Virus record (IMG/VR): IMGVR_UViG_3300014826_000005
Coordinates: 8,167 to 72,166 of that record
Reading direction: 5' to 3' (one strand)
Source of the DNA: a virus
Taxonomy: Duplodnaviria > Caudoviricetes
DNA length: 64,000 bases
Shown piece after piece: positions 12,333 to 58,820 of the stretch. Numbering within the stretch: position 1 is the stretch's first letter; each line of letters starts with the position of its first letter. Made by a program: the position numbers and the translations under genes. The notes under the pieces were generated by a model. It had not been told where the DNA came from, ran no database searches, and worked only from the letters and a program-made list of their open reading frames with translations.

Positions 12333-12614
12333 ATGAAATATTATTTTATGTTGATAAGTAAAGAAGAAGCAAAGAATCCTAGTAATCTTGGTGCAAACTA
12401 TGTTTTTAGTCATAGAGATAAATGGTGTGAAGAAAATGCAGAAGAATGGGCGAAATATTTAACTGCTGGATATGTGAAGTATGTTGACTATGCTGTTAAG
12501 GATAACAAAGCTTACTATATCTTAAAAACCTATATGGATTTAGATGTTAATGCTGTCATTCTCTTATGTCGTGAATCAGAATTTGGTTGTGACCAAAACT
12601 TCACGAATTCATAG
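12333..12614 (+). CDS. Hypothetical protein
   Basis: 93-aa ORF with RBS. Confidence 0.7.
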   Translation: MKYYFMLISKEEAKNPSNLGANYVFSHRDKWCEENAEEWAKYLTAGYVKYVDYAVKDNKAYYILKTYMDLDVNAVILLCRESEFGCDQNFTNS

Positions 12615-12635
12615 CACTATTAATATTTTTTTATT

Positions 12636-12869
12636 ATGATAAAATATACAATTAGAAACGAAGCTCTTTATAACTACAATAGTGTTGCTCATAGGGTTGT
12701 TATTTTATCAAAACAAAATAAACACATTAAGGCATGTCGTTTAATGATTGAACATGGAATCACTGCAGATATGATACAATGTAGTGATTTTATCAATAGG
12801 CTTCATTTTAGAATAACAAAATGTGTTTATTTTTTATTAATTAAAAAAAAGAAAAAAGATATGGAATAA
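12636..12869 (+). CDS. Hypothetical protein
   Basis: 77-aa ORF, weak RBS, runs into the terminator. Confidence 0.4.
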   Translation: MIKYTIRNEALYNYNSVAHRVVILSKQNKHIKACRLMIEHGITADMIQCSDFINRLHFRITKCVYFLLIKKKKKDME

Positions 12870-12888
12870 ATAATATTCCATATCTTTT
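12854..12888. terminator. Bidirectional terminator
   Basis: AAAAGATATGGAATA/TATTCCATATCTTTT between convergent genes. Confidence 0.7.
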
Positions 12889-12889
12889 A

Positions 12890-14128
12890 TTATTTATTAT
12901 AATATTGAATAGATAAAATAAAATACCAATAAATAGCTTTCTTATAATTGATACGTGAAGCTTCTCTTTTAAACTTAGTGTGAACTCCTGTTTCTTCACC
13001 CCATTTATCTAATGTGTCTTTAATAATTTTGATATTAGGGTTGTTACTATTTGTTTTTCTAAAGAGTTCAGCTGACCATGTTAAGAAACGAGAACTATTA
13101 ATATCTTCTTTATTATATTTATCAATATATAAGAACATGAATAAAATCGCTTTAATAAAATTACTGATATCACCAATATGTTTATCATTAACAATTTTTG
13201 ATAAATAGAAACGACAATCATACATACTGATACCTGTTAAATCTTTAGCCTGTTTAACACGTTTTAATTCAAGCCCATTAGCAATAATTTGGTTAATGAT
13301 ATTTTCACTAATAACTTCTACAACTGTTGTATTATTTTGGTTATCCACATCCAATTGTATTTGATCATAGGAATCTTTTGTTAAAGAAACACGTAGACCG
13401 TTACGATAATTACGAATATAGTTATCAGCAATATTTCTCATCATTGATTTTTGGTCATTACGTATTCTTTGAATAAAACGAATCGTTTCATTATCATCAC
13501 CCACAATAATAGATTCTTTTAAGAAATCATAGGAATTATGAATGGATTTAAATAATGTATTGAATAAGTTCTTTTCTTTTTTAATTAAGAATTTTTCACT
13601 TAAATTATCGATGGTGTATTGCATAACACCTTCATCCGTTTTATATCTAAAAAATAAAGCAAAGATAGAGGGATAAACGGATATAGCATAAATTGCTAAA
13701 GCTGAATTTAATCCTTTCTCATCTTTCTTAAGTGTGTAATAACGTATACAACAATAAAAGACCCAGAAAATAGGTTGACCTGTTAAAAGTTTGAAATCAG
13801 ATTTAGATCCTAAATGGGATACGATTTCTTTAACCATATCTACAACGTCATTCTTTTTAATTTTAAATAAGTGGAAATATTCTTCTTTATCAACTTCACC
13901 AAATGTAATAGGATAGACAGGTCCAGCTGTATAAAGCTTATCATTATTTTTATCAATATATGAACCGACGATTTGTTTAAATTTCCTATCTCCAACCGAT
14001 GTAGAAAGGACAGCTTCTATTTTAGGATAAAGTCTATCTCTCGTAATGGTTGTTGTCGTATTTTTTTTAGCAGCTTCACTAAAAATATCTCCAAAGCTAT
14101 CATAAAAGATAGAATCAAAAATATCCAT
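12890..14128 (-). CDS. Probable virion (head) structural protein
   Basis: 412 aa; late promoter; divergent from the portal; N-terminal IFSE-A resembles the putative maturation site. Confidence 0.5.
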   Translation of the reverse strand: MDIFDSIFYDSFGDIFSEAAKKNTTTTITRDRLYPKIEAVLSTSVGDRKFKQIVGSYIDKNNDKLYTAGPVYPITFGEVDKEEYFHLFKIKKNDVVDMVKEIVSHLGSKSDFKLLTGQPIFWVFYCCIRYYTLKKDEKGLNSALAIYAISVYPSIFALFFRYKTDEGVMQYTIDNLSEKFLIKKEKNLFNTLFKSIHNSYDFLKESIIVGDDNETIRFIQRIRNDQKSMMRNIADNYIRNYRNGLRVSLTKDSYDQIQLDVDNQNNTTVVEVISENIINQIIANGLELKRVKQAKDLTGISMYDCRFYLSKIVNDKHIGDISNFIKAILFMFLYIDKYNKEDINSSRFLTWSAELFRKTNSNNPNIKIIKDTLDKWGEETGVHTKFKREASRINYKKAIYWYFILSIQYYNK

Positions 14129-41678: not shown

Positions 41679-42824
41679 TTATTCAACAATCTGGAACCAA
41701 AGACCTTCGCCAGTGAATGTAGGTTCATCAGCAGAAACCTTTGCTTCTAATACGTTGTCTAACTTAGCAGCATATGCAGCTGACATTACACCATTCTGAG
41801 AAGCTGAAGCTAATGTAGCAGCATTCTGAGGAGTGTAACCTAATTTATCCTTGATAACTGCATCTGTAACATATTTATCTACTAAATTAGTACCATTTAA
41901 GTTTTCAACATTACTTAATCCAACATCAGCAGCAGTTGTTCCATGTGGGTTAGTAGCAGACTTACCTTCAGCCTGTGGATGAGTGTAAACTAATGTTTCA
42001 GCACCATTAATCTTTATATAGCCGTTCTTTTCTGAAGCTTCAGTTAAAGTAGCATCAACTCTTGCATGAGCAGCCTGTGAGTGGTCATAAGCAACCTTAC
42101 CACGAGCACCATCAAATGCAGTAGAAGAAGTTTCACCTAAAGCTAATGTTTCAGAGATAACAACGAACTTAGAACCAGACCAACGATAAGTCTTTTCTGA
42201 AGCACCATCACCAACTGCATCAACATAGATTTTACCTGTTTCTGGTGTAACTGGTGAATTATCAGCTAATGTTGCAGTTGCTAAATCTGCACCCATCTTA
42301 ACTTCAACAACGTCATCAACGTATGAAGGTAACTGAGTAGCAGGTACGAAACCGTTTTCGTCAAGTGTTGCAACACCAGTAACGCCATCAGCAGTCTTAG
42401 CACCTAACTGAGTCTTCTTAACATAAGTACCATCAGCAGCTGTAGTTAAAGCAGTAACAGCATCCTGTACTTTCTTAACTGCACTAGCAGTTGCTGCTAC
42501 TGTATCATCTGCAACGTTAGTTGCGTTAGATAACTTAACAACACCAGCTTTTTCTAATGTAGCTGACTGGATAGTAGCCCATGTATTATCGTTTCTTAAG
42601 AAACGTAAGTTATCAGCAGTTTCAAGTTCAGGTACATGATTACCATGTTCTTTAAGAGCTAAAGTTGCAACGATTTCATCAATGTTACGACCTTTGGCAT
42701 CATACACGTTAGTACTCTTAGTTAATGGATAAATAGGAGTATTTTTTGCACCGACTTTTTGATTAATAATAATATTTAAGCCTGTTTGTAATTCTTTAGC
42801 CATTGTAAAATTAAGTCCTTTCAC
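41679..42824 (-). CDS. Short tail-fibre-like protein
   Basis: 381 aa; shares the LPSYVDDV...KTYRWSG...AFDGARGKVAY module with the long fibre; late promoter. Confidence 0.7.
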   Translation of the reverse strand: MKGLNFTMAKELQTGLNIIINQKVGAKNTPIYPLTKSTNVYDAKGRNIDEIVATLALKEHGNHVPELETADNLRFLRNDNTWATIQSATLEKAGVVKLSNATNVADDTVAATASAVKKVQDAVTALTTAADGTYVKKTQLGAKTADGVTGVATLDENGFVPATQLPSYVDDVVEVKMGADLATATLADNSPVTPETGKIYVDAVGDGASEKTYRWSGSKFVVISETLALGETSSTAFDGARGKVAYDHSQAAHARVDATLTEASEKNGYIKINGAETLVYTHPQAEGKSATNPHGTTAADVGLSNVENLNGTNLVDKYVTDAVIKDKLGYTPQNAATLASASQNGVMSAAYAAKLDNVLEAKVSADEPTFTGEGLWFQIVE

Positions 42825-50518: not shown

Positions 50519-53500
50519 ATGGCTACAACTGATCAGAAGGACTTATCTATACAGATGGTCCATATTGATGATCAAAAAGATGTTCATCAGCTTTATCCTA
50601 AAACAAAGGATAAAAATGTAACGGTAGAATCAACAAATAAAGCATTGCCTACAGGTATTTCATCATTAAAAGACCTTGTTGATAAATTAGGTGATACAGC
50701 ATTTACAAGTTCTACTGTTATAGGTATTACTACTGATGAACGTAATAAATTAAAAGGCATCGAAGAAGGTGCACAGGTCAACATGGTTGACGGTGTAAAA
50801 GGCGATGCTGAAACATATTATAGAACTGGTGATATCAATATTACTAAGGCCAATATTGGACTAGGTAGTGTTGAAAATAAATCATCTGCAACTATAAGAA
50901 GTGAAATTACTTCACAAAATGTTACATCTGCTTTAGGCTATACTCCTCCTAAACAGGATACAACATATAGTGATGCAACAACTCAAGTTCATGGTTTAAT
51001 GTCTACTGATGACAAAGTTAAACTTGATGGTATTGCTCCTGGTGCACAGGTCAATTCTATTACTGGTGTTAAAGGTGATAATGAAACAACATACCGTACT
51101 GGTAATGTGAATATCACTAAAGCTAATATTGGTTTAACAAACGTTGAAGATAAGTCATCTGCAACAATTCGAGGAGAATTGACATCTAAGAATGTTACGG
51201 ATGCACTAGGCTATGCACCTCCTAGAGTTAATACAACTTATGAAGAAGCAACCACAACAACTGATGGTTTATTATCTTCAGAAGATAAAACAAAATTAGA
51301 CTCTATTGAAAGTGGTGCCCAAAAGAATACTGTTACAGGTGTTAAAGGCTATAATGAATCTGCTTATCGTAGAGGTGATATTGTCATCACTAAAGCTAAT
51401 ATCGGTTTAACAAACGTTGAAGACAAATCATCTGAAACAATTCGAGGAGAATTGACATCTAAAAATGTTACGGATGCATTAGGATATACACCTCCTAAAC
51501 AAGATACAACTTATCCACCAGCAAATGGTTCAACTCTAGGGTTAATTAAAACTGGTGGAAGTTTAACATTAACAAGCGGTGTGGCTACTGTTAATGATAA
51601 CTCACATAAGCATACAATTGCTAATATTACGAATTTACAATCATCATTAGATAGTAAATTAAATACATCTCTAAAAGGTGCTAAAAATGGATTAGCTGAA
51701 CTTGATGAAAATGGTCTTGTACCTTCTACTCAATTACCTTCATACGTTGATGATGTTATTGAAGTGAATATGGGTTCAGATTTAACATCCGCAACATTAG
51801 CAAATGATTCACCAGTTACACCAGAAGCAGGTAAGATTTATGTTGATTTAGCATCAAATAAAACTTACAGATGGTCTGGTACAACATTCGTTGTTATTTC
51901 TGATACTATTGCTTTAGGCGAAACATCAACAACAGCATTTGATGGTGCTCGTGGTAAGGTTGCTTATAACCATTCACAATCTGCTCATGCAAGAGTTGAT
52001 GCTACTTTAACACAAGCATCTACTACTAATGGTAATATTAAAATTAATGGTACTGAAACAAAAGTCTATACTCACCCAGGTTATACTGCTCAAAAGAGTG
52101 GTTTATATAAAGTTACTGTAGATGGTAGTGGACATGTGAGTGCTGTTACAGCTGTCACAAAAGCTGATATTACTGCATTAGGTATCCCAGGCCAAGATAC
52201 GAATACAACATACGTTGCTGCAACATCAACTGCTAATGGTTTGATGTCATCATCTGATAAAGCAAAATTAGATGGTATCGCAAGTGGAGCAAACGCATAC
52301 ACTCACCCAGGATATACATCAAGAACAAGTGGTCTTTACAAAATCACTGTTGACAGTTTAGGTCACGTAAGTGCTGTAGCATCTGTTACTAAAGCAGATA
52401 TTACAGGTTTAGGTATTCCTGGTTCTGATACAACTTATAGTACAATGACTGGTGCAACAACTGATGCCGATGGCTCAAAAGGTCTGGTTCCAGCACCATC
52501 TAAAGGTAGTAATTCACGTTACTTACGTTCTGATGGTACATGGGTCACTCCACCTAATACAACATATCCTAATGCATCATCATCAGTTAATGGTTTGATG
52601 TCAGCATCTGATAAAGCAAAATTAGATGGTATTGCTAGTGGTGCAAATAAATACACTCATCCAGGATATACAGCTTATGATTCTGGATTCTATAAAGTTT
52701 CTGTAGACTCTACAGGCCATGTTGCTGCTGCTGTAGCCGTTAGTAAATCAGATATTACAAGCTTAGGTATTCCAGGACAAGATACAACTTATGCTGATGC
52801 TACTACATCAGCTCATGGTTTAATGACAGCTGCTATGGTATCTAAACTTAATGGAATAGCTTCTGGTGCAAATGCATACAGTCACCCAACATATTCATCA
52901 CATGCATCGGGATTATATAAAATAACAGTTGATGGTACCGGTCACGTAAGTGCTGTAGCATCTGTTACTAAATCAGATATCGCTGCATTAGGTATTCCTA
53001 GTTCTGATACGACATATGGTCTTATGAAGGGTGCTACATCATCTGTTGATGGTGCAACAGGTTTGGTTCCCGCACCATCTAAAGGTGACAGTTCACGTTA
53101 CTTACGTTCAGATGGTACATGGGTCACTCCACCTAATACAACATATTCAGATGCTACAACATCAGCCCATGGTTTAATGACAGCTGCTATGGTGTCTAAA
53201 CTTAATGGAATAGCAAGTGGTGCGAATGCATATAGTCACCCAGGATATACATCAAGATCAAGTGGTCTTTATAAGATTACGGTAGATAGTACTGGTCATG
53301 TAAGTGCTGTATCATCTGTTACTAAAGCAGATATTACTGCATTAGGTATCCCAGGACAGGATACTAATACAACATATGGTGTTGTATCATCATCGTCAAA
53401 TGGGTTGATGTCACCAACAATGTTGAACACATTAAATAGTGTTAATAGTGCTATTGGTGGGAAGTATTCGTCAAGTGGCGGCACTTTAAATGGTGACATA

Positions 53501-54772
53501 ACATTCCCTGAAATTGGTAGTACTGGTTCAAGTAAAGGTATTAACTGGTCAGGAGGTACTGATGGTGCTAGAATCTATTATAAAACAACGGCTCAAGATG
53601 CAGGCCATTTAGTATTTCAGGCTACAGACGATGCTGACGCCGTCATTGACTTTGAATGGAATATTGGAGGTACAGTTTCTAGAAAATCATACATCACATC
53701 GGATGGTGTTTATCATGGTACTGCTACTTATGCTACTAGTGCTGGATCGGCAAATAGTGTTGCTTGGGGCAATGTAACTGGTAAACCATCTACATATACT
53801 CCATCGTCGCATACACATACTATCGCTCAAATAACTAATTTAGAGTCAACTTTAGACGGTAAGGCAGCTAAATCACACACTCATGGTATTAGTGATATTA
53901 CTAATTTACAAAGTACTATCAACACCATTAATAGCAATAAAGCTGATCTGTCGTATTTAAATAAAAACTTTTACAGTACGACAAGTGTCGATAATATAAT
54001 TAATGGTTTGAATTATAAAGCAATCAGTCTTAATGGAGGTAATACTGCAAACTATCCTTACCATAGATTCTTATCTATACAGAATCTAACAGGTCAATGG
54101 AGTGATACTGTAGGTATTTATCTAATAGATAAAAGATATGATGGTGGGGGATACGGTATTGTAAAAGTAACATTACGAACAAATGACAAAATTTCAAATT
54201 ACTCGGTTTCTATAAGATGGCTCGCAAGATCTTCATCGTTTGCAGCAGCAGATATATCGTATGGTGCATATTTACATGATAATAAGTTAGATGTCGATGT
54301 GTTTATGAAATGCGGTGGCTGGCCTAGAACGAAAGTATATAATATATTTGGCGCATCAGATTGGACTATGATGAGTTCTGAAGAATCTAATGATACAACT
54401 ACAACAAATAGACTAAAATCTGTTGAATGTTATTCTTCTTTAGCAGATGCTGGAACAAAAATACATTCAGCATCTTATTCACGTACTGGTGAAGGTGTAG
54501 ATGAAGGTGTTGTAGCTAGAGCTACTAATGCCGATAATGCGTCTAGTGTAGCTTGGGGCAATGTAACTGGTAAACCATCTACATATACTCCATCATCACA
54601 TACACATACTATCTCTCAAATAACTAATTTACAGTCAACTTTAGATAGTAAAGCTGCTGCAAATCACACACATCCATACATTTCGACATCTGTCAATTAT
54701 GTTCTTATTACAGATGAAACAAATTTAACAGCATATGATGCAAGTTCCGCAAAGTGGAATGCACCTTCATAA
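50519..54772 (+). CDS. Long tail fibre: constant part 50519-53929 (1137 aa) plus the currently fused variable cassette 53930-54772
   Basis: Multiple fibre repeats (HPGYT..SGLYK.TVD..GHV; GVKG..E..YR.G..ITKANIGL; HTH motifs). Confidence 0.88.
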   Translation: MATTDQKDLSIQMVHIDDQKDVHQLYPKTKDKNVTVESTNKALPTGISSLKDLVDKLGDTAFTSSTVIGITTDERNKLKGIEEGAQVNMVDGVKGDAETYYRTGDINITKANIGLGSVENKSSATIRSEITSQNVTSALGYTPPKQDTTYSDATTQVHGLMSTDDKVKLDGIAPGAQVNSITGVKGDNETTYRTGNVNITKANIGLTNVEDKSSATIRGELTSKNVTDALGYAPPRVNTTYEEATTTTDGLLSSEDKTKLDSIESGAQKNTVTGVKGYNESAYRRGDIVITKANIGLTNVEDKSSETIRGELTSKNVTDALGYTPPKQDTTYPPANGSTLGLIKTGGSLTLTSGVATVNDNSHKHTIANITNLQSSLDSKLNTSLKGAKNGLAELDENGLVPSTQLPSYVDDVIEVNMGSDLTSATLANDSPVTPEAGKIYVDLASNKTYRWSGTTFVVISDTIALGETSTTAFDGARGKVAYNHSQSAHARVDATLTQASTTNGNIKINGTETKVYTHPGYTAQKSGLYKVTVDGSGHVSAVTAVTKADITALGIPGQDTNTTYVAATSTANGLMSSSDKAKLDGIASGANAYTHPGYTSRTSGLYKITVDSLGHVSAVASVTKADITGLGIPGSDTTYSTMTGATTDADGSKGLVPAPSKGSNSRYLRSDGTWVTPPNTTYPNASSSVNGLMSASDKAKLDGIASGANKYTHPGYTAYDSGFYKVSVDSTGHVAAAVAVSKSDITSLGIPGQDTTYADATTSAHGLMTAAMVSKLNGIASGANAYSHPTYSSHASGLYKITVDGTGHVSAVASVTKSDIAALGIPSSDTTYGLMKGATSSVDGATGLVPAPSKGDSSRYLRSDGTWVTPPNTTYSDATTSAHGLMTAAMVSKLNGIASGANAYSHPGYTSRSSGLYKITVDSTGHVSAVSSVTKADITALGIPGQDTNTTYGVVSSSSNGLMSPTMLNTLNSVNSAIGGKYSSSGGTLNGDITFPEIGSTGSSKGINWSGGTDGARIYYKTTAQDAGHLVFQATDDADAVIDFEWNIGGTVSRKSYITSDGVYHGTATYATSAGSANSVAWGNVTGKPSTYTPSSHTHTIAQITNLESTLDGKAAKSHTHGISDITNLQSTINTINSNKADLSYLNKNFYSTTSVDNIINGLNYKAISLNGGNTANYPYHRFLSIQNLTGQWSDTVGIYLIDKRYDGGGYGIVKVTLRTNDKISNYSVSIRWLARSSSFAAADISYGAYLHDNKLDVDVFMKCGGWPRTKVYNIFGASDWTMMSSEESNDTTTTNRLKSVECYSSLADAGTKIHSASYSRTGEGVDEGVVARATNADNASSVAWGNVTGKPSTYTPSSHTHTISQITNLQSTLDSKAAANHTHPYISTSVNYVLITDETNLTAYDASSAKWNAPS
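53930..53939 (+). repeat. Crossover core AATAGCAATA in the expressed fibre frame (N-S-N)
   Basis: Same core and reading frame as the five silent cassettes. Confidence 0.8.
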
Positions 54773-54780
54773 TAAAGAAA

Positions 54781-54812
54781 AAATATAGAATGGGCTAGCC
54801 CATTCTATATTT
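54781..54812. terminator. Bidirectional terminator inside invertible segment 1
   Basis: AAATATAGAATGGGC/GCCCATTCTATATTT. Confidence 0.8.
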
Positions 54813-55248
54813 ATTTTATACCCATACATAAAATACTTTCTACTGTTATACTATCAGCAGCAAATGCGATAATATTACTACCATTTCCGTTCTTAGTTCC
54901 ACAACACTGTATTCTTGAGCCTTCAGCAAATAGAGTTAGCGTATTTCCATTAACTTTTCCTCTAGTAATATTTAAACTATAAGAATAGCTATAACCTCCA
55001 CCGTCTCCATAAGGAACAATTAACCCACAGTCAAATGTACCATCAGAATTTATTCTAGTAAATCCACCAACATTATAATATCCACTAGCCTGACCCTGTA
55101 TTCTGATATATTTATACTTAGATATATTAGGAATTGTTAATGTTAGATCCTTACTAAGTTTATAAGCTCCACCTGGAATATAAGAAGAAAAATCCACAAT
55201 TTCAAACTTACTAATTACTTCAGCTCTTGCTGTATTGATATTGCTATA
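54811..55248 (-). other. Silent fibre-tip cassette A (145 aa, YSNINTARAEVISKFEIVDFSSY...CMGIK)
   Basis: Open frame begins at core TATAGCAATA (55239-55248), no RBS or true start. Confidence 0.8.
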
Positions 55249-55261
55249 TAATCTATAAAGA

Positions 55262-55299
55262 ATATCTTAAACCTAAGTGTATAACTAGGTTTAAGATAT
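55262..55299 (+). repeat. 38-bp palindrome unit 1 (ATATCTTAAACCTA-agtgtataac-TAGGTTTAAGATAT)
   Basis: 14-bp perfect arms with an asymmetric spacer; inverted relative to units 2 and 3. Confidence 0.9.
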
Positions 55300-55312
55300 T
55301 TATATTTTCATA

Positions 55313-55687
55313 AATAGCAATATTGCAGGCATTGATCATGAAGCATTATTATACACCGATTATTCATCTAAATGGAGACGAAGTGATGGTGTACATATTA
55401 AGAACGTTGAAGCATGTGTAGTTATCACAAAGGGTCACACTTGCGAAATTTATATAGCAGCAGTTGTGCAAGGGGGATGGAATAGCGGTGATACTAGCCC
55501 GTGGGTACTAGGTAATTTACCAGCACCTCTTAACAATGGATTTCAATGTGTTGGATATAATGCCAACGACGGGCGTCCTATTAGATTCACTGTTAATGAA
55601 GACGGTTGGTTGAAACCATGGTATAATAAAGAACCTTTAGTTGATAGTGTAACGTTCTCTGTCCATACTTGTTATATAACTAAATAG
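55313..55687 (+). other. Silent fibre-tip cassette B (124 aa, NSNIAGIDHEALLYTDYSSKW...CYITK)
   Basis: Open frame begins at core AATAGCAATA (55313-55322). Confidence 0.8.
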
Positions 55688-55691
55688 TATA

Positions 55692-55994
55692 CTAATTCTT
55701 AACAAGAATAGATGTAACGATAATTCTAGCATTGGATGGTATTGTTTGTTCATATTCTGAAATATTCATAACATAGACATTAGCGTTTGATCTAGTAATA
55801 TCATCAATATTATCAAAGCCACCTTTGATAGATGTAATTCCGTAAATATTCGTATCTATATTATAAACAGAATATCCCGATGGGACGGGAACGTTTACTG
55901 TAAATATTTTACCTTGATATCCTGTAAGTTTTGTACCAGCCCATGCAGTAGAGTACGTGGTAATTATTTTTATCTTATCTGAGATATTGCTATT
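55692..55994 (-). other. Silent fibre-tip cassette C (100 aa, NSNISDKIKIITTYSTAWAG...ILVKN), absent from the ORF track
   Basis: Stop-free frame from core 55985-55994 to TAG at 55692. Confidence 0.78.
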
Positions 55995-56007
55995 TATGAA
56001 AATAAAA

Positions 56008-56045
56008 ATATCTTAAACCTAGTTATACACTTAGGTTTAAGATAT
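56008..56045 (-). repeat. 38-bp palindrome unit 2
   Basis: ATATCTTAAACCTA-gttatacact-TAGGTTTAAGATAT. Confidence 0.9.
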
Positions 56046-56058
56046 TCTTTATAGATTA

Positions 56059-56412
56059 TATAGCAATATCACAGGTATCAATGGTAAATTAAATTTACCA
56101 CATTTAGCCAGTAGAGAGTTAGCTACAAATGCTCAATTTTTTGCTACAACAAGTACTACTGATACAATATATACTTGTAAAAATTTGGATAATGGAGCTA
56201 TTATTTTCGCATATTTATCATTCTCTGGATCAGCTCAATTATTTGCTACAGCAATCATTGATACACCAATGTTTTTAGCAAATAATGAAGATGCGGTTGT
56301 TTTACATGATAGTGTAAATGGTCAAACAGGGTATATTCGTCGTAAGAGTACAACATCTATTTCGATACTCGTGTCTAATAGTAATTGGCAACTAAGTGTT
56401 GTTATTTATTAA
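56059..56412 (+). other. Silent fibre-tip cassette D (117 aa, YSNITGINGKLNLPHLASR...SVVIY)
   Basis: Open frame begins at core TATAGCAATA (56059-56068). Confidence 0.8.
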
Positions 56413-56435
56413 AAAACTATTTTATGGAAATATAA

Positions 56436-56473
56436 ATATCTTAAACCTAGTTATACACTTAGGTTTAAGATAT
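56436..56473 (-). repeat. 38-bp palindrome unit 3
   Basis: Identical to unit 2; left core degenerate, right core intact. Confidence 0.9.
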
Positions 56474-56486
56474 CTTTTATGAATTA

Positions 56487-56567
56487 TATAGCAATAATGC
56501 CAAGAATACGAATAATGTATCGTCTATTCGATTTTTCATTATTTTAAATAAAAAAATACATGTATAG
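56487..56567 (+). pseudogene. Truncated cassette E (26 aa, YSNNAKNTNNV...)
   Basis: Intact core (56487-56496), but the frame ends within a terminator. Confidence 0.55.
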
Positions 56568-56589
56568 ATATTCTCTATACATGTATTTT
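56553..56589. terminator. Bidirectional terminator
   Basis: AAAATACATGTATAGA/TCTATACATGTATTTT. Confidence 0.75.
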
Positions 56590-56593
56590 CTTT

Positions 56594-57327
56594 TTAAATA
56601 GTATTAAGGAAGAAAAGTAATTCATCAGATATTTTATTTTCTGAGTATTTAATTTCTTCTCCTAATAATTCAGGATATTCATAAGTGACATAAGTAAAAC
56701 GCGTATTAATAAGACTACTTAACATTGAAAGAATTAAATCTGGTTTAATATAATTCAACATACGATATTTTGTTTGCATTAAATTTTGATACATATAGTT
56801 ATCTTCTATTTTTGCAATAAATTTATTATTTCTTATAATACGTGTATTAACATGATCACTTAGATTTCCTGTTAGAATATAAGGTAAAGATGCATAGTGG
56901 ATTTTTCCTTTTTCATCTTTCATATACCCTAAATCCAAAAGTAATTTTTTCTTTAATAATAGTAGAATTGTAATATATTGTCTTTTACTTAAAAGATTTA
57001 AGTCTCTATAAGAACCAAAGTATTTTGTATAATAAGCATAAACAAATTGGAATTGAATTGGTGAAGGATCATGGTATTCCATATAATAATTAATTTCTTC
57101 ATCACTTAAAGGAATATCAATATCTTTCTTAATAAGATCAATCGTCATATCAACGTTGATTTCACTCATGGTAATGACACCTTCATCAAGCTTACTTGCA
57201 TTCATAAGCATCTTATCAGCACCTGATAATCCTTCAGAACTATGAATATTACTTACTTCTGTTAAGTTCTTAGAATACTGATCTTTTAAGAAATAACTTA
57301 ATTGGAATTTAATGATTGTTTTATTAA
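56594..57327 (-). CDS. Exon 2 of the probable non-virion RNAP specificity subunit (AR9 gp226 / phiKZ gp68-like)
   Basis: Frame is open upstream of the tracked ATG up to the splice site; reads (F)NKTIIKFQLSYFLK... Confidence 0.6.
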
Positions 57328-57745
57328 CTTTAACGCATATTATCTCTAATATGAATAGACTATATCTTCATTTAATATGTACTATTACCATACATATTAA
57401 AGCCCTCCATTTCGGATTATTGTCACAAAGACTCACCTACGTTTCGTCCTATGATTGGACCTACTCGCTTATCAAACCACCTGATTTCTCATTTCAGTAT
57501 TTCTACATACATGGTTGTCTAGCTTTCCCTAGTCGTTGAACTCACAACTTATATAAGTTGCTTTGCTGCGTCGATTGTCTCTATTCATAACCTTATTACT
57601 ATACCTTGAGAGTTACCTCTTGCCACTAAGTATATCACTATCTTAGTTTAGTAGTTATGACCTAACGAGCATACTTTCGTATGTCTGAATAAAATTCAGA
57701 AGTTTCCCGCAATTAAAAGGGTTTGAGTTGAACTAATAAAAATCA
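57328..57745 (-). ncRNA. Group I intron (418 nt, no ORF)
   Basis: P AATTGCGGGAAA, Q AATCGACGCAGC, R TCAACGACTA, S GATATAGTCT; P1 GTTGGAT|TGAT with ATTAGTTCAAC (U-G at the splice site); P10 TTAATAA/TTATTAG; P9 CATATTA-GAGA-TAATATG; terminal G. Confidence 0.9.
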
Positions 57746-58820
57746 ATCCAACGATGTTCTCTTTATATTTATGAAGTTTTTTGTCATAGTGTTCATTAAA
57801 ACGATACTTAACAACATTTTCACTAATTAATACTTTATTGGTAAATTGTCTTACAACAGTGTAGACATCAATACCAAAAATTTCTCGTTGATTAAAGATA
57901 GGTGCATTATTTGCGTTACTCTCTAATACTTTCGCCTTTACATAGACATAGAGTTTTGCATAAAGATCAATCTTTGTTCTTGTATAATACACCATTTGCC
58001 CTTCATTATTAATAAAATAATAATACTTATCTTTACCAATAATTGTAGGTTCAATTTGATTATCTTTCACAAATTTCATAACGTCTTCTTCAGGAATTTC
58101 ATCTTGAATGATATTACCCGTTGTATCATCGAGTTCATAAGTTGAAGCATATCCAAATAAATCAAATAACCTTCTATAGAACTTAAAAATGATATCACTA
58201 TCTTTTTCTAATTTGATACTATTCAATTGAATATAGTGAAAGATAGCTGGAGACATAATTTTCATTGAGAATGAAATCTGTAAAAGAATCTTAATATGTT
58301 GATTTGTAAATTCCAATGATTCCAAATGTTTCTTTTGTTTTAAATACTTTTGTTTTTCTGTTGTATTGGATTCAATATCATCCAAATAGTTTTCTTCAAC
58401 CATACGAATGATTTTCTCAATCATTGTATCTGTGAACATGACTTCATAGATAAAATCTATATAAGCCATCATATTTTCTTTATTAAATACTTTTTGCTTA
58501 TCTAAAGCAAATTTGATTTTTAGATAAGCTAATACCAGTTCATCTTCAAAATCATAATTATTAATAAAGAAATTCGTATAAGATGTAATAATATCAAGTT
58601 GATTAATGTAAGATTCTTTCCCTATTAGGAATCGTTCATAAGGCTTAAGTCTATCGACAAAATCCTTTTCTCCTTTTTTATGTCCTAATTCAGGATATAA
58701 TTTTGCATTAAATACTTTTGAGAAATGACAGACAAATAATTTACCGTCTCTCTCCACAATAATTTGTGATGGCGTTGGCTTCCACGTATTAATTTTAGAA
58801 GTCCTTTTTTCAATTTCCAT
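57746..58820 (-). CDS. Exon 1 of the probable non-virion RNAP specificity subunit; spliced product 602 aa
   Basis: Early promoter; two genes from the chaperonin, as gp226 and gp228 are in AR9; junction ENIVG-F-NKTII. Confidence 0.6.

Follow-up and report, generated by a model that had tools for sequence, protein, structure and literature searches.

A probable multi-locus tail-fibre tip shufflon in AR9/phiKZ-like jumbo phages from animal gut metagenomes

The virus record IMGVR_UViG_3300014826_000005 (Duplodnaviria; Caudoviricetes) carries, downstream of a long tail-fibre gene, an array of short open reading frames (ORFs) that lack start codons, begin with the same short sequence, here termed the core, and are separated at some junctions by 38-bp palindromes. 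The window, i.e., the whole stretch of DNA that was analysed, comprises 64 kb of this 72,166-bp record, the completeness of which is approximately 30% according to CheckV. Based on a chaperonin and a prohead protease encoded in the record, the phage is an AR9/phiKZ-like jumbo phage. Sequence comparison with relatives indicates that the region is probably one array of a multi-locus tail-fibre tip shufflon, which is shared by a group of approximately 231-kb phages of this kind from animal gut metagenomes. That crossover takes place at the cores, and that a movable expression module exists, we consider very likely on the same comparisons. In the proposed mechanism, a site-specific recombinase, supplied by the remaining approximately 70% of the genome or by the host, would act on the cores, and the module, consisting of a promoter and an N-terminal exon, would be able to face either neighbouring cassette. 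The palindromes would form hairpins that most likely function as two-way terminators or insulators, ending the fibre transcript after a convergent pair of cassettes and keeping parked cassettes silent.

The array and its borders comprise the following features, given in window coordinates:

50519 to 54772, plus strand: long tail-fibre gene of 1417 amino acids (aa), with ORF, translation and a Pfam PTR match at 1.9e-29
53862 to 54002, plus strand: segment of 141 nt (47 codons) within the long fibre gene, with an in-frame core-like ATAGCAATAA at 53931-53940
54781 to 54812, no strand: putative two-way terminator hairpin where the fibre gene meets cassette A (14 pairs and a loop of 4; tails T-rich on either strand; -18.9 kcal/mol)
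54811 to 55247, minus strand: silent cassette A, an open frame of 144 codons from the core at 55238-55247
55248 to 55313, no strand: junction unit 1, made up of a type I linker, the palindrome at 55262-55299 and a type II linker
55314 to 55687, plus strand: silent cassette B, 123 codons, core at 55314-55323
55692 to 55993, minus strand: silent cassette C, 99 codons, core at 55984-55993, converging on B
55994 to 56059, no strand: junction unit 2, palindrome at 56008-56045, in the opposite orientation to unit 1
56060 to 56412, plus strand: silent cassette D, 116 codons, core at 56060-56069, with a decayed site on its 3' side
56413 to 56487, no strand: junction unit 3, with a decayed left core, the palindrome at 56436-56473 and a type I-like linker
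56488 to 56567, plus strand: E stub, with the variant core ATAGCAATAA at 56488-56497 followed by a 25-codon frame
56553 to 56589, no strand: putative terminator hairpin (16 pairs, loop of 5) at the boundary of the array and the next gene (56594 to 57211, minus strand)

The core, which was analysed in a table of 47 sites across the window and its relatives, has the full form TA[A/T]ATAGCAATAT[C/T], spans 10-15 bp and heads every cassette. In the window, ATAGCAATAT occurs at 55238-55247 (minus), 55314-55323 (plus), 55984-55993 (minus) and 56060-56069 (plus), and the variant ATAGCAATAA is found at 56488-56497 (plus), while the sixth position, to the left of unit 3, holds a decayed core only. The orientations of the five window cores (-, +, -, +, +) are matched by the layout of 11 related loci. 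Cassettes A to D and the E stub are open frames without a start codon, which begin exactly at the core and read it in the phase Ser-Asn-Ile. The convergent cassettes B and C have no terminator in between. As judged from sequence comparison, the E stub marks the fixed end of the array; a stub with the identical variant core is also present in L071, the contig that served as the reference for the window's locus, where cassette D likewise occupies the same position as in the window.

The three window palindromes (38 bp each) consist of identical 14-bp arms, ATATCTTAAACCTA, and a 10-bp spacer, which reads AGTGTATAAC in unit 1 and the reverse complement of AGTGTATAAC in units 2 and 3. The 13-mer ATATCTTAAACCT has six exact copies in the 64 kb, all of them in palindrome arms. 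The gap between core and arm amounts to 14 nt, or 13 nt if the preceding T/A is counted as part of the core. The linkers of the window fall into two types, I and II, and in the window the direction of the spacer is coupled to the linker type, a coupling that breaks in relatives. Read in inverted orientation, unit 1 repeats unit 2 over 93 nt (97%) and unit 3 over 76 nt (93%). An earlier note on this DNA had described this anatomy of palindromes, cores and linkers, including the inversion of unit 1 relative to units 2 and 3, and sequence reading confirmed it.

Relatives of the phage were recovered through protein searches, which led to ENA and Logan contigs, several of them approximately 231.5-231.8 kb long; the complete contigs of about 231 kb include ERZ931786 k127_85021 and ERZ919295 scaffold_21. 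Contigs approximately 95% identical occur at high depth in two public runs, one of which is a cattle gut metagenome; for cattle gut runs, the depth is about 250-300x. Loose ends in run X1, the probable source sample, match two of the relatives (L081 and L082) exactly over 30 nt. Palindrome scans of IMG/VR and JGI metagenome contigs returned no copy, a megablast search against deposited phages gave zero matches, and the neighbouring 205-aa protein, used as bait, found no relatives in the IMG/VR or JGI metagenome collections. With the long fibre as bait, just distant fibres with a common repeat were recovered. The 17-mer GCAATAAATAGCAATAT gave nine single, unpaired matches in IMG/VR, which are taken as chance or as a common fibre motif. 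Logan contigs do not allow in-sample inversion, strand or amount to be read, and no conclusion here draws on differences in depth or on the ends of unitigs.

According to these comparisons, the 1417-aa fibre is not the protein to which cassettes A, B and C belong; they encode alternative C-terminal tips of fibre-2, a separate short fibre. With cassette A as query, proteins were returned that have a leader of 14 residues ahead of an A-like domain, and the contigs encoding them also harbour a divergent gene that starts with MKCYYPTDKSG and contains typical fibre motifs as well as an in-frame core. A search with the constant part of this gene yielded nine proteins (P0130-P0138), which are 85-96% identical over the first 115 residues and, after ...IN|SNI, run into unrelated tips of 100-185 residues (alignment A1). 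In this alignment, F-, A-, B-, C- and G-type tip families are joined to one constant region, and three of these families align with cassettes A, B and C of the window. The A-type tip of P0131, which is fused to the constant part of fibre-2, is 86% identical to window cassette A; B-type tips stand behind the constant part in P0132, P0133 and P0135, and a C-type tip does so in P0134 and lies on the non-coding side of the module in L071. The structural model of cassette A is a beta-sandwich with a predicted local distance difference test (pLDDT) score of 81, the best matches of which, albeit weak, are receptor-binding proteins of the staphylococcal phages K and phi812. The C-terminal tip of fibre-2 is probably receptor-binding.

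Two further genes are related to fibre-2. In L086, a 113-aa stand-alone gene with its own start codon (12590-12931, minus strand) encodes a B-type tip domain and adjoins a decayed unit, the palindrome of which has a loop of 5 nt. In the window, a 381-aa fibre-like ORF with a Phage_fiber_2 repeat (41679-42824, minus strand) shares 41% identity at its N-terminus with residues 5-75 of the constant part of fibre-2; from its sequence, this ORF is a putative fixed paralogue without cores.

The constant part of fibre-2 is carried by a module that measures 475 bp from core to core and comprises a 36-nt flank, the element AACATTCGATTA, a strong ribosome-binding site and 115 codons. It is flanked by two inverted cores, neither of which has a palindrome. 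Module identity over 475-477 bp is 100% for L074 compared with L077/L080, likewise for L071 compared with L078, and 99.8% in other pairings; in five loci the homology stops at the outer edge of each core, and the cassettes beyond differ. The element AACATTCGATTA fits AACA-N6-TA, lies 68 nt upstream of the start codon and is followed downstream by AAAGGAGG. Given the AR9 late-promoter consensus, the start of which is reported in PMC7598289, AACATTCGATTA is a candidate late promoter. In L074, the candidate promoter overlaps with an imperfect inverted repeat (CGAATG..CATTCG plus a T/A run), which occupies positions 18-58 of the 475-bp module and lies a few bases from its non-coding core.

A “leader” frame on the non-coding side of the module was considered as a gene and dismissed, as it represents the reverse strand of the promoter and the 5' untranslated region and is broken in L084. 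Contig L058, which had been considered as evidence for such a “leader” gene and for a 5'-truncated cassette A, was discarded in this respect too, since it equals L071 with a 450-bp gap and other repeat gaps. Because the “leader” frame is not a gene, cassettes on the non-coding side of the module appear to be parked rather than expressed. The window array contains no module; all three junctions hold units, and cassettes A to D are therefore silent. In L081 and L082, the module is located at a second locus and fused to an F-type tip.

Comparisons between loci place the exchange at the cores. Each junction of diverging cassettes is occupied either by the module or by a 66-bp linker-palindrome-linker unit, and the two are interchangeable. 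Units invert in their entirety. Nine cassettes were seen with two or three upstream contexts, namely the module side, a type I linker or a type II linker. L074 and L076 are 99.84% identical over 11 kb, and their sole difference is the exact reverse complement of one 88-bp unit (core-linker-palindrome-linker-core). Between L074 and L081, the module and a unit have swapped junctions, while the intervening 2.3-kb segment, which contains a helicase-like gene, is unchanged, and L081 and L082, which are 99.985% identical, diverge at a core. Relative to the window, the B-C segment is inverted in L058 and L071, and unit 1 sits where L071 has the module. Finally, in run X19 cassette B is joined to a type I linker and cassette D to a type II linker, the reverse of the window.

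All observed arrangements are reachable by inversions between oppositely oriented cores. Since the unit is shorter than the assembler k-mers (119-141) and several arrangements recur in independent assemblies, chimeric assembly is unlikely as a general explanation. The sharpest mosaic breakpoints are the two module cores. Hence, as far as assembled sequences tell, crossover takes place at cores, palindrome-free cores included, which supports the proposal of the earlier note that the partner site needs just the short core. The same breakpoints speak against its further proposal that the palindrome is a required positioning or enhancer element.

Two additional observations concern the invertible DNA. 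A contig of 25,425 bp runs from the right flank of locus 1, on the chaperonin side, through the module into the interior of locus 2, on the helicase side; either the two loci have undergone a large inversion with each other or the assembly is chimeric across the 475-bp module. Moreover, a 418-aa P-loop protein with weak DnaB_C/AAA matches (L074 10966-12222; L081 8258-9514) is encoded beside a primase-like gene inside an invertible segment between two cassettes, and thus a probable replication gene flips with the shufflon.

Fibre mosaics might also arise without any dedicated system, through general homologous recombination at a conserved motif (..INSNI..), yet this explanation appears improbable. 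It would account for the absence of a recombinase from the searches described below and for the finding that the core motif is also encoded in unrelated fibre genes, such as the window's own fibre and a gene on an unrelated phage contig (L062) that contains the motif AINSNI. However, it does not account for start-less cassettes in alternating orientation, each with the same head of 10-15 bp, which is a very short homology for general recombination. In addition, precise inversions between genomes that are 99.8-99.99% identical imply a rate far above that of point change.

The palindrome arms are identical in every unit copy found in 11 loci, while the loops vary. Besides AGTGTATAAC, the loops AGTATATAAC, GTGATACACT, GTCATATACT, ATATATTAAC and the self-complementary GGTATATACC were observed, and one unit with decayed cores, located between convergent ORFs, has a loop of 5 nt. 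The orientation of the loop versus the two linker types varies between units. The spacer had been regarded as directional, a view that does not hold: it turns relative to the linkers, equals its own reverse complement in one unit and, in one degenerate unit, shrinks to 5 nt. This variation in sequence, orientation, symmetry and length excludes a directional spacer and would not be tolerated by a dimer-bound duplex site, but it fits a hairpin. A flip of the spacer by site-specific exchange at the arm edges was rejected, as it predicts units with no spacer or with two spacers, and neither was seen.

The loop variation also bears on whether the 38-bp palindrome itself might be the crossover site, resembling lox/FRT or gix, with strand exchange in the spacer. 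The 14-10-14 geometry is indeed similar to that of tyrosine recombinase sites, and units 1 and 2 form inverted repeats that flank the B-C segment. Nevertheless, we regard this arrangement as very improbable: exchange within the palindrome cannot reassort linkers and cassettes, stop codons in the arms bar in-frame fusion across it, the spacer flips versus both linkers and is self-complementary or 5 nt long in some units, and the module lacks a palindrome.

A role of the palindromes in transcription would fit their structure. The RNA of the units folds with -17 to -21 kcal/mol and has T-rich tails on both strands; for the hairpin of unit 1, the value lies between -19 and -20 kcal/mol whichever strand is folded, with z about -5.5. 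The unit hairpins resemble the gene-end hairpins of the phage at 54781-54812 and 56553-56589, and a simple terminator scan flags unit 3 only (plus strand). Because the convergent pairs have no terminator in between, transcription that starts in the module would run on to the next unit and stop there, and a two-way terminator or insulator is therefore the most economical reading. That the palindromes are terminators or insulators and nothing else has, in our estimate, close to an even chance.

Several points weigh against a core-based shufflon with terminator hairpins as outlined here. The rearrangements are deduced from metagenome assemblies of different samples rather than from one clonal stock, and L081 and L082, the sequences of which match run X1 contigs and diverge at a core, are contigs only, for which mixed strains are possible. 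No recombinase was detected in the 72-kb record or in approximately 120 kb of relatives' loci. On random sequence, an in-frame 9-mer of the core would occur in the long fibre by chance with p ~0.01-0.03, and the long-fibre copy may be a real, lineage-specific site. Regarding the hairpins, the stem shows neither substitutions nor compensatory changes, and although the linkers occur in at least 13 sequence variants, all 31 sites have an arm-to-core distance of 14 nt. For cores just 66 bp apart to recombine by inversion, the DNA would have to bend sharply or extrude a cruciform. To our knowledge, the termination signals of AR9-type RNA polymerases are not defined.

Given the invariant stem, the constant 14-nt distance and the apparent direct recombination of cores 66 bp apart, the hairpin may have a role in recombination. 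In one version, which follows the earlier note and which we deem unlikely, the recombinase or a helper protein binds the palindrome in its hairpin or cruciform state, so that cleavage is set 14 nt away on both sides, and the partner needs a core only. The constancy of this distance is what such a mechanism would produce, and the combination of invariant stems with variable loops is typical of a sequence-recognised hairpin; yet, both module cores are exchange points without a palindrome, and a decayed unit without cores retains a perfect stem. Plain DNA looping would hardly produce the direct flip of the 88-bp unit that distinguishes two near-identical genomes, but this flip leaves the choice of the expressed cassette unchanged. 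The arm and the Mu gix half-site agree in 9 of 12 positions, a similarity with a chance p of ~0.01, and the half-sites would be spaced by 14 bp instead of 2; the resemblance is therefore regarded as a lead only. Neither a Y1_Tnp nor a Resolvase gene was found in the 72-kb record.

A related and still less likely possibility is a recombination site of a new type, in which the hairpin with its invariant stem takes an active part and pairs the two cores positioned 14 nt from its foot. The hairpin would be extruded as a cruciform or bound by a phage enzyme of no recognised recombinase family, thereby allowing the inversion of the 66-bp piece and seeding exchanges with bare cores elsewhere. An enzyme outside the recognised families would explain why none was found.

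The long fibre gene upstream of the array had been considered the expression site, a role that it probably does not have, as judged from sequence comparison. Its core-like ATAGCAATAA at 53931-53940 is in frame and, as stated in the earlier note, has no palindrome beside it. However, the 141-nt segment that bears it is absent in all close relatives examined: it is missing from L058 and L071, contigs of X2, X3 and X19 stop aligning at 54003, and the L071 homologue of the long fibre (1455 aa) has no core. Moreover, the constant partner of the tips is the separate short fibre gene. The ATAGCAATAA of the long fibre and the core of the E stub carry an identical T-to-A change, which otherwise is seen only in the never-reassorted E site. 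Within the 1417-aa fibre, the in-frame ATAGCAATAA is probably an inactive look-alike that forms part of a common fibre motif. In the long fibre, linking motifs (..AWGNVTGKPSTYTPSSHTHT..; window 53702-53884 and 54491-54673, L071 10817-15184) recur as building blocks, and the protein varies among relatives by insertions and deletions of whole domains; there are relatives with an extra domain of approximately 170 aa and without the 141-nt segment.

The recombinase was sought with hidden Markov models (HMMs) in all six frames of the 72,166-bp record, i.e., approximately 30% of the genome, which contained no match to Phage_integrase, Resolvase, Recombinase, IS110 DEDD or Y1_Tnp (PF01797). The reported lack of a tyrosine or serine recombinase motif in the window thus extends to the whole record. 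Pfam scans of approximately 45 neighbouring proteins likewise identified no recombinase. As none is encoded nearby, the enzyme must act in trans, in agreement with what had been proposed. The suggested analogy to HUH/Y1 transposases finds no counterpart among the genes, as no Y1/HUH gene was found in the 72-kb record.

Several known systems share features with the array, and the proposed network would work in the manner of the Rin, Rci and Min shufflons. In the R64/IncI shufflon (Rci, pilV), multiple inversions choose the C-terminal end, and the sites are asymmetric, i.e., conserved on one side only. The array described here also picks one of several C-terminal ends by multiple inversions at asymmetric sites. 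R64 (named in PMC9881135), however, has an adjacent rci gene and single 19-bp sites between its segments, and it features neither back-to-back site pairs with a hairpin nor a movable constant exon. In the Rin shufflon of Bifidobacterium prophages, dissimilar receptor-binding C-terminal cassettes are headed by 11-bp asymmetric repeats, to which the inversions map, and a second phage locus with an 8-bp site has no adjacent recombinase (PMC6109161). The short repeats heading the cassettes are of comparable length, 11 bp in Rin versus 10-15 bp here. Yet, Rin comprises a tyrosine recombinase at the array end and a fixed constant gene. The array described here has no recombinase beside it, its constant part moves together with the expression signals as a piece of 475 bp, the remaining junctions are occupied by palindromic units, and arrays are present at two or more loci of a jumbo phage.

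The Gin/Cin/Min systems of Mu, P1 and p15B also switch tail-fibre tips by inversion and, according to the Mu annotation, have convergent cassette pairs within invertible segments. Their gix site is 26 bp long, its two 12-bp half-sites being separated by a 2-bp centre, and the gene for the invertase adjoins; the core described here lacks such a dyad, and the arms that resemble a gix half-site at 9 of 12 positions are 14 bp apart. A gix-type arrangement is not apparent, as AAACC and GGTTT are separated by 14 bp (9 bp in one unit) and Resolvase is without a match. In fimS and hin, a short invertible piece carries a promoter, similar to the module, which in addition holds a ribosome-binding site and the first 115 codons. 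The ends of IS200/IS605 elements, processed by Y1 (HUH) enzymes, share with the units a conserved hairpin at a fixed distance from a short target; nevertheless, no Y1 gene was found here and hairpin-less sites take part. We know of no case in which Y1 chemistry inverts double-stranded segments.

Alternating short sites, start-less cassettes together with one constant part, and alternative arrangements that break at the sites are shufflon features present in these phages, while a dedicated recombinase was absent from the 72-kb record and the fetched loci of relatives. Fibre-tip shufflons are known from temperate phages and plasmids, with the invertase adjacent; the array analysed here belongs to a jumbo phage with its own multisubunit RNA polymerases, and at least ten tip families are distributed over two or more loci. 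Its distinctive traits are a movable promoter with a constant N-terminal exon, junctions filled by one invariant hairpin, a helicase-like ATPase gene inside an invertible segment, and no known recombinase found. If the proposed shufflon is real, a large phage of virulent type could hedge its host range in the gut by means of a compact, core-only recombination site.

Beyond the terminator hairpin at the right border of the array, the ORFs at 56594-57211 and 57696-58820 (both minus strand) have no Pfam match and are called as separate genes in L071 too (205 aa and 362 aa).

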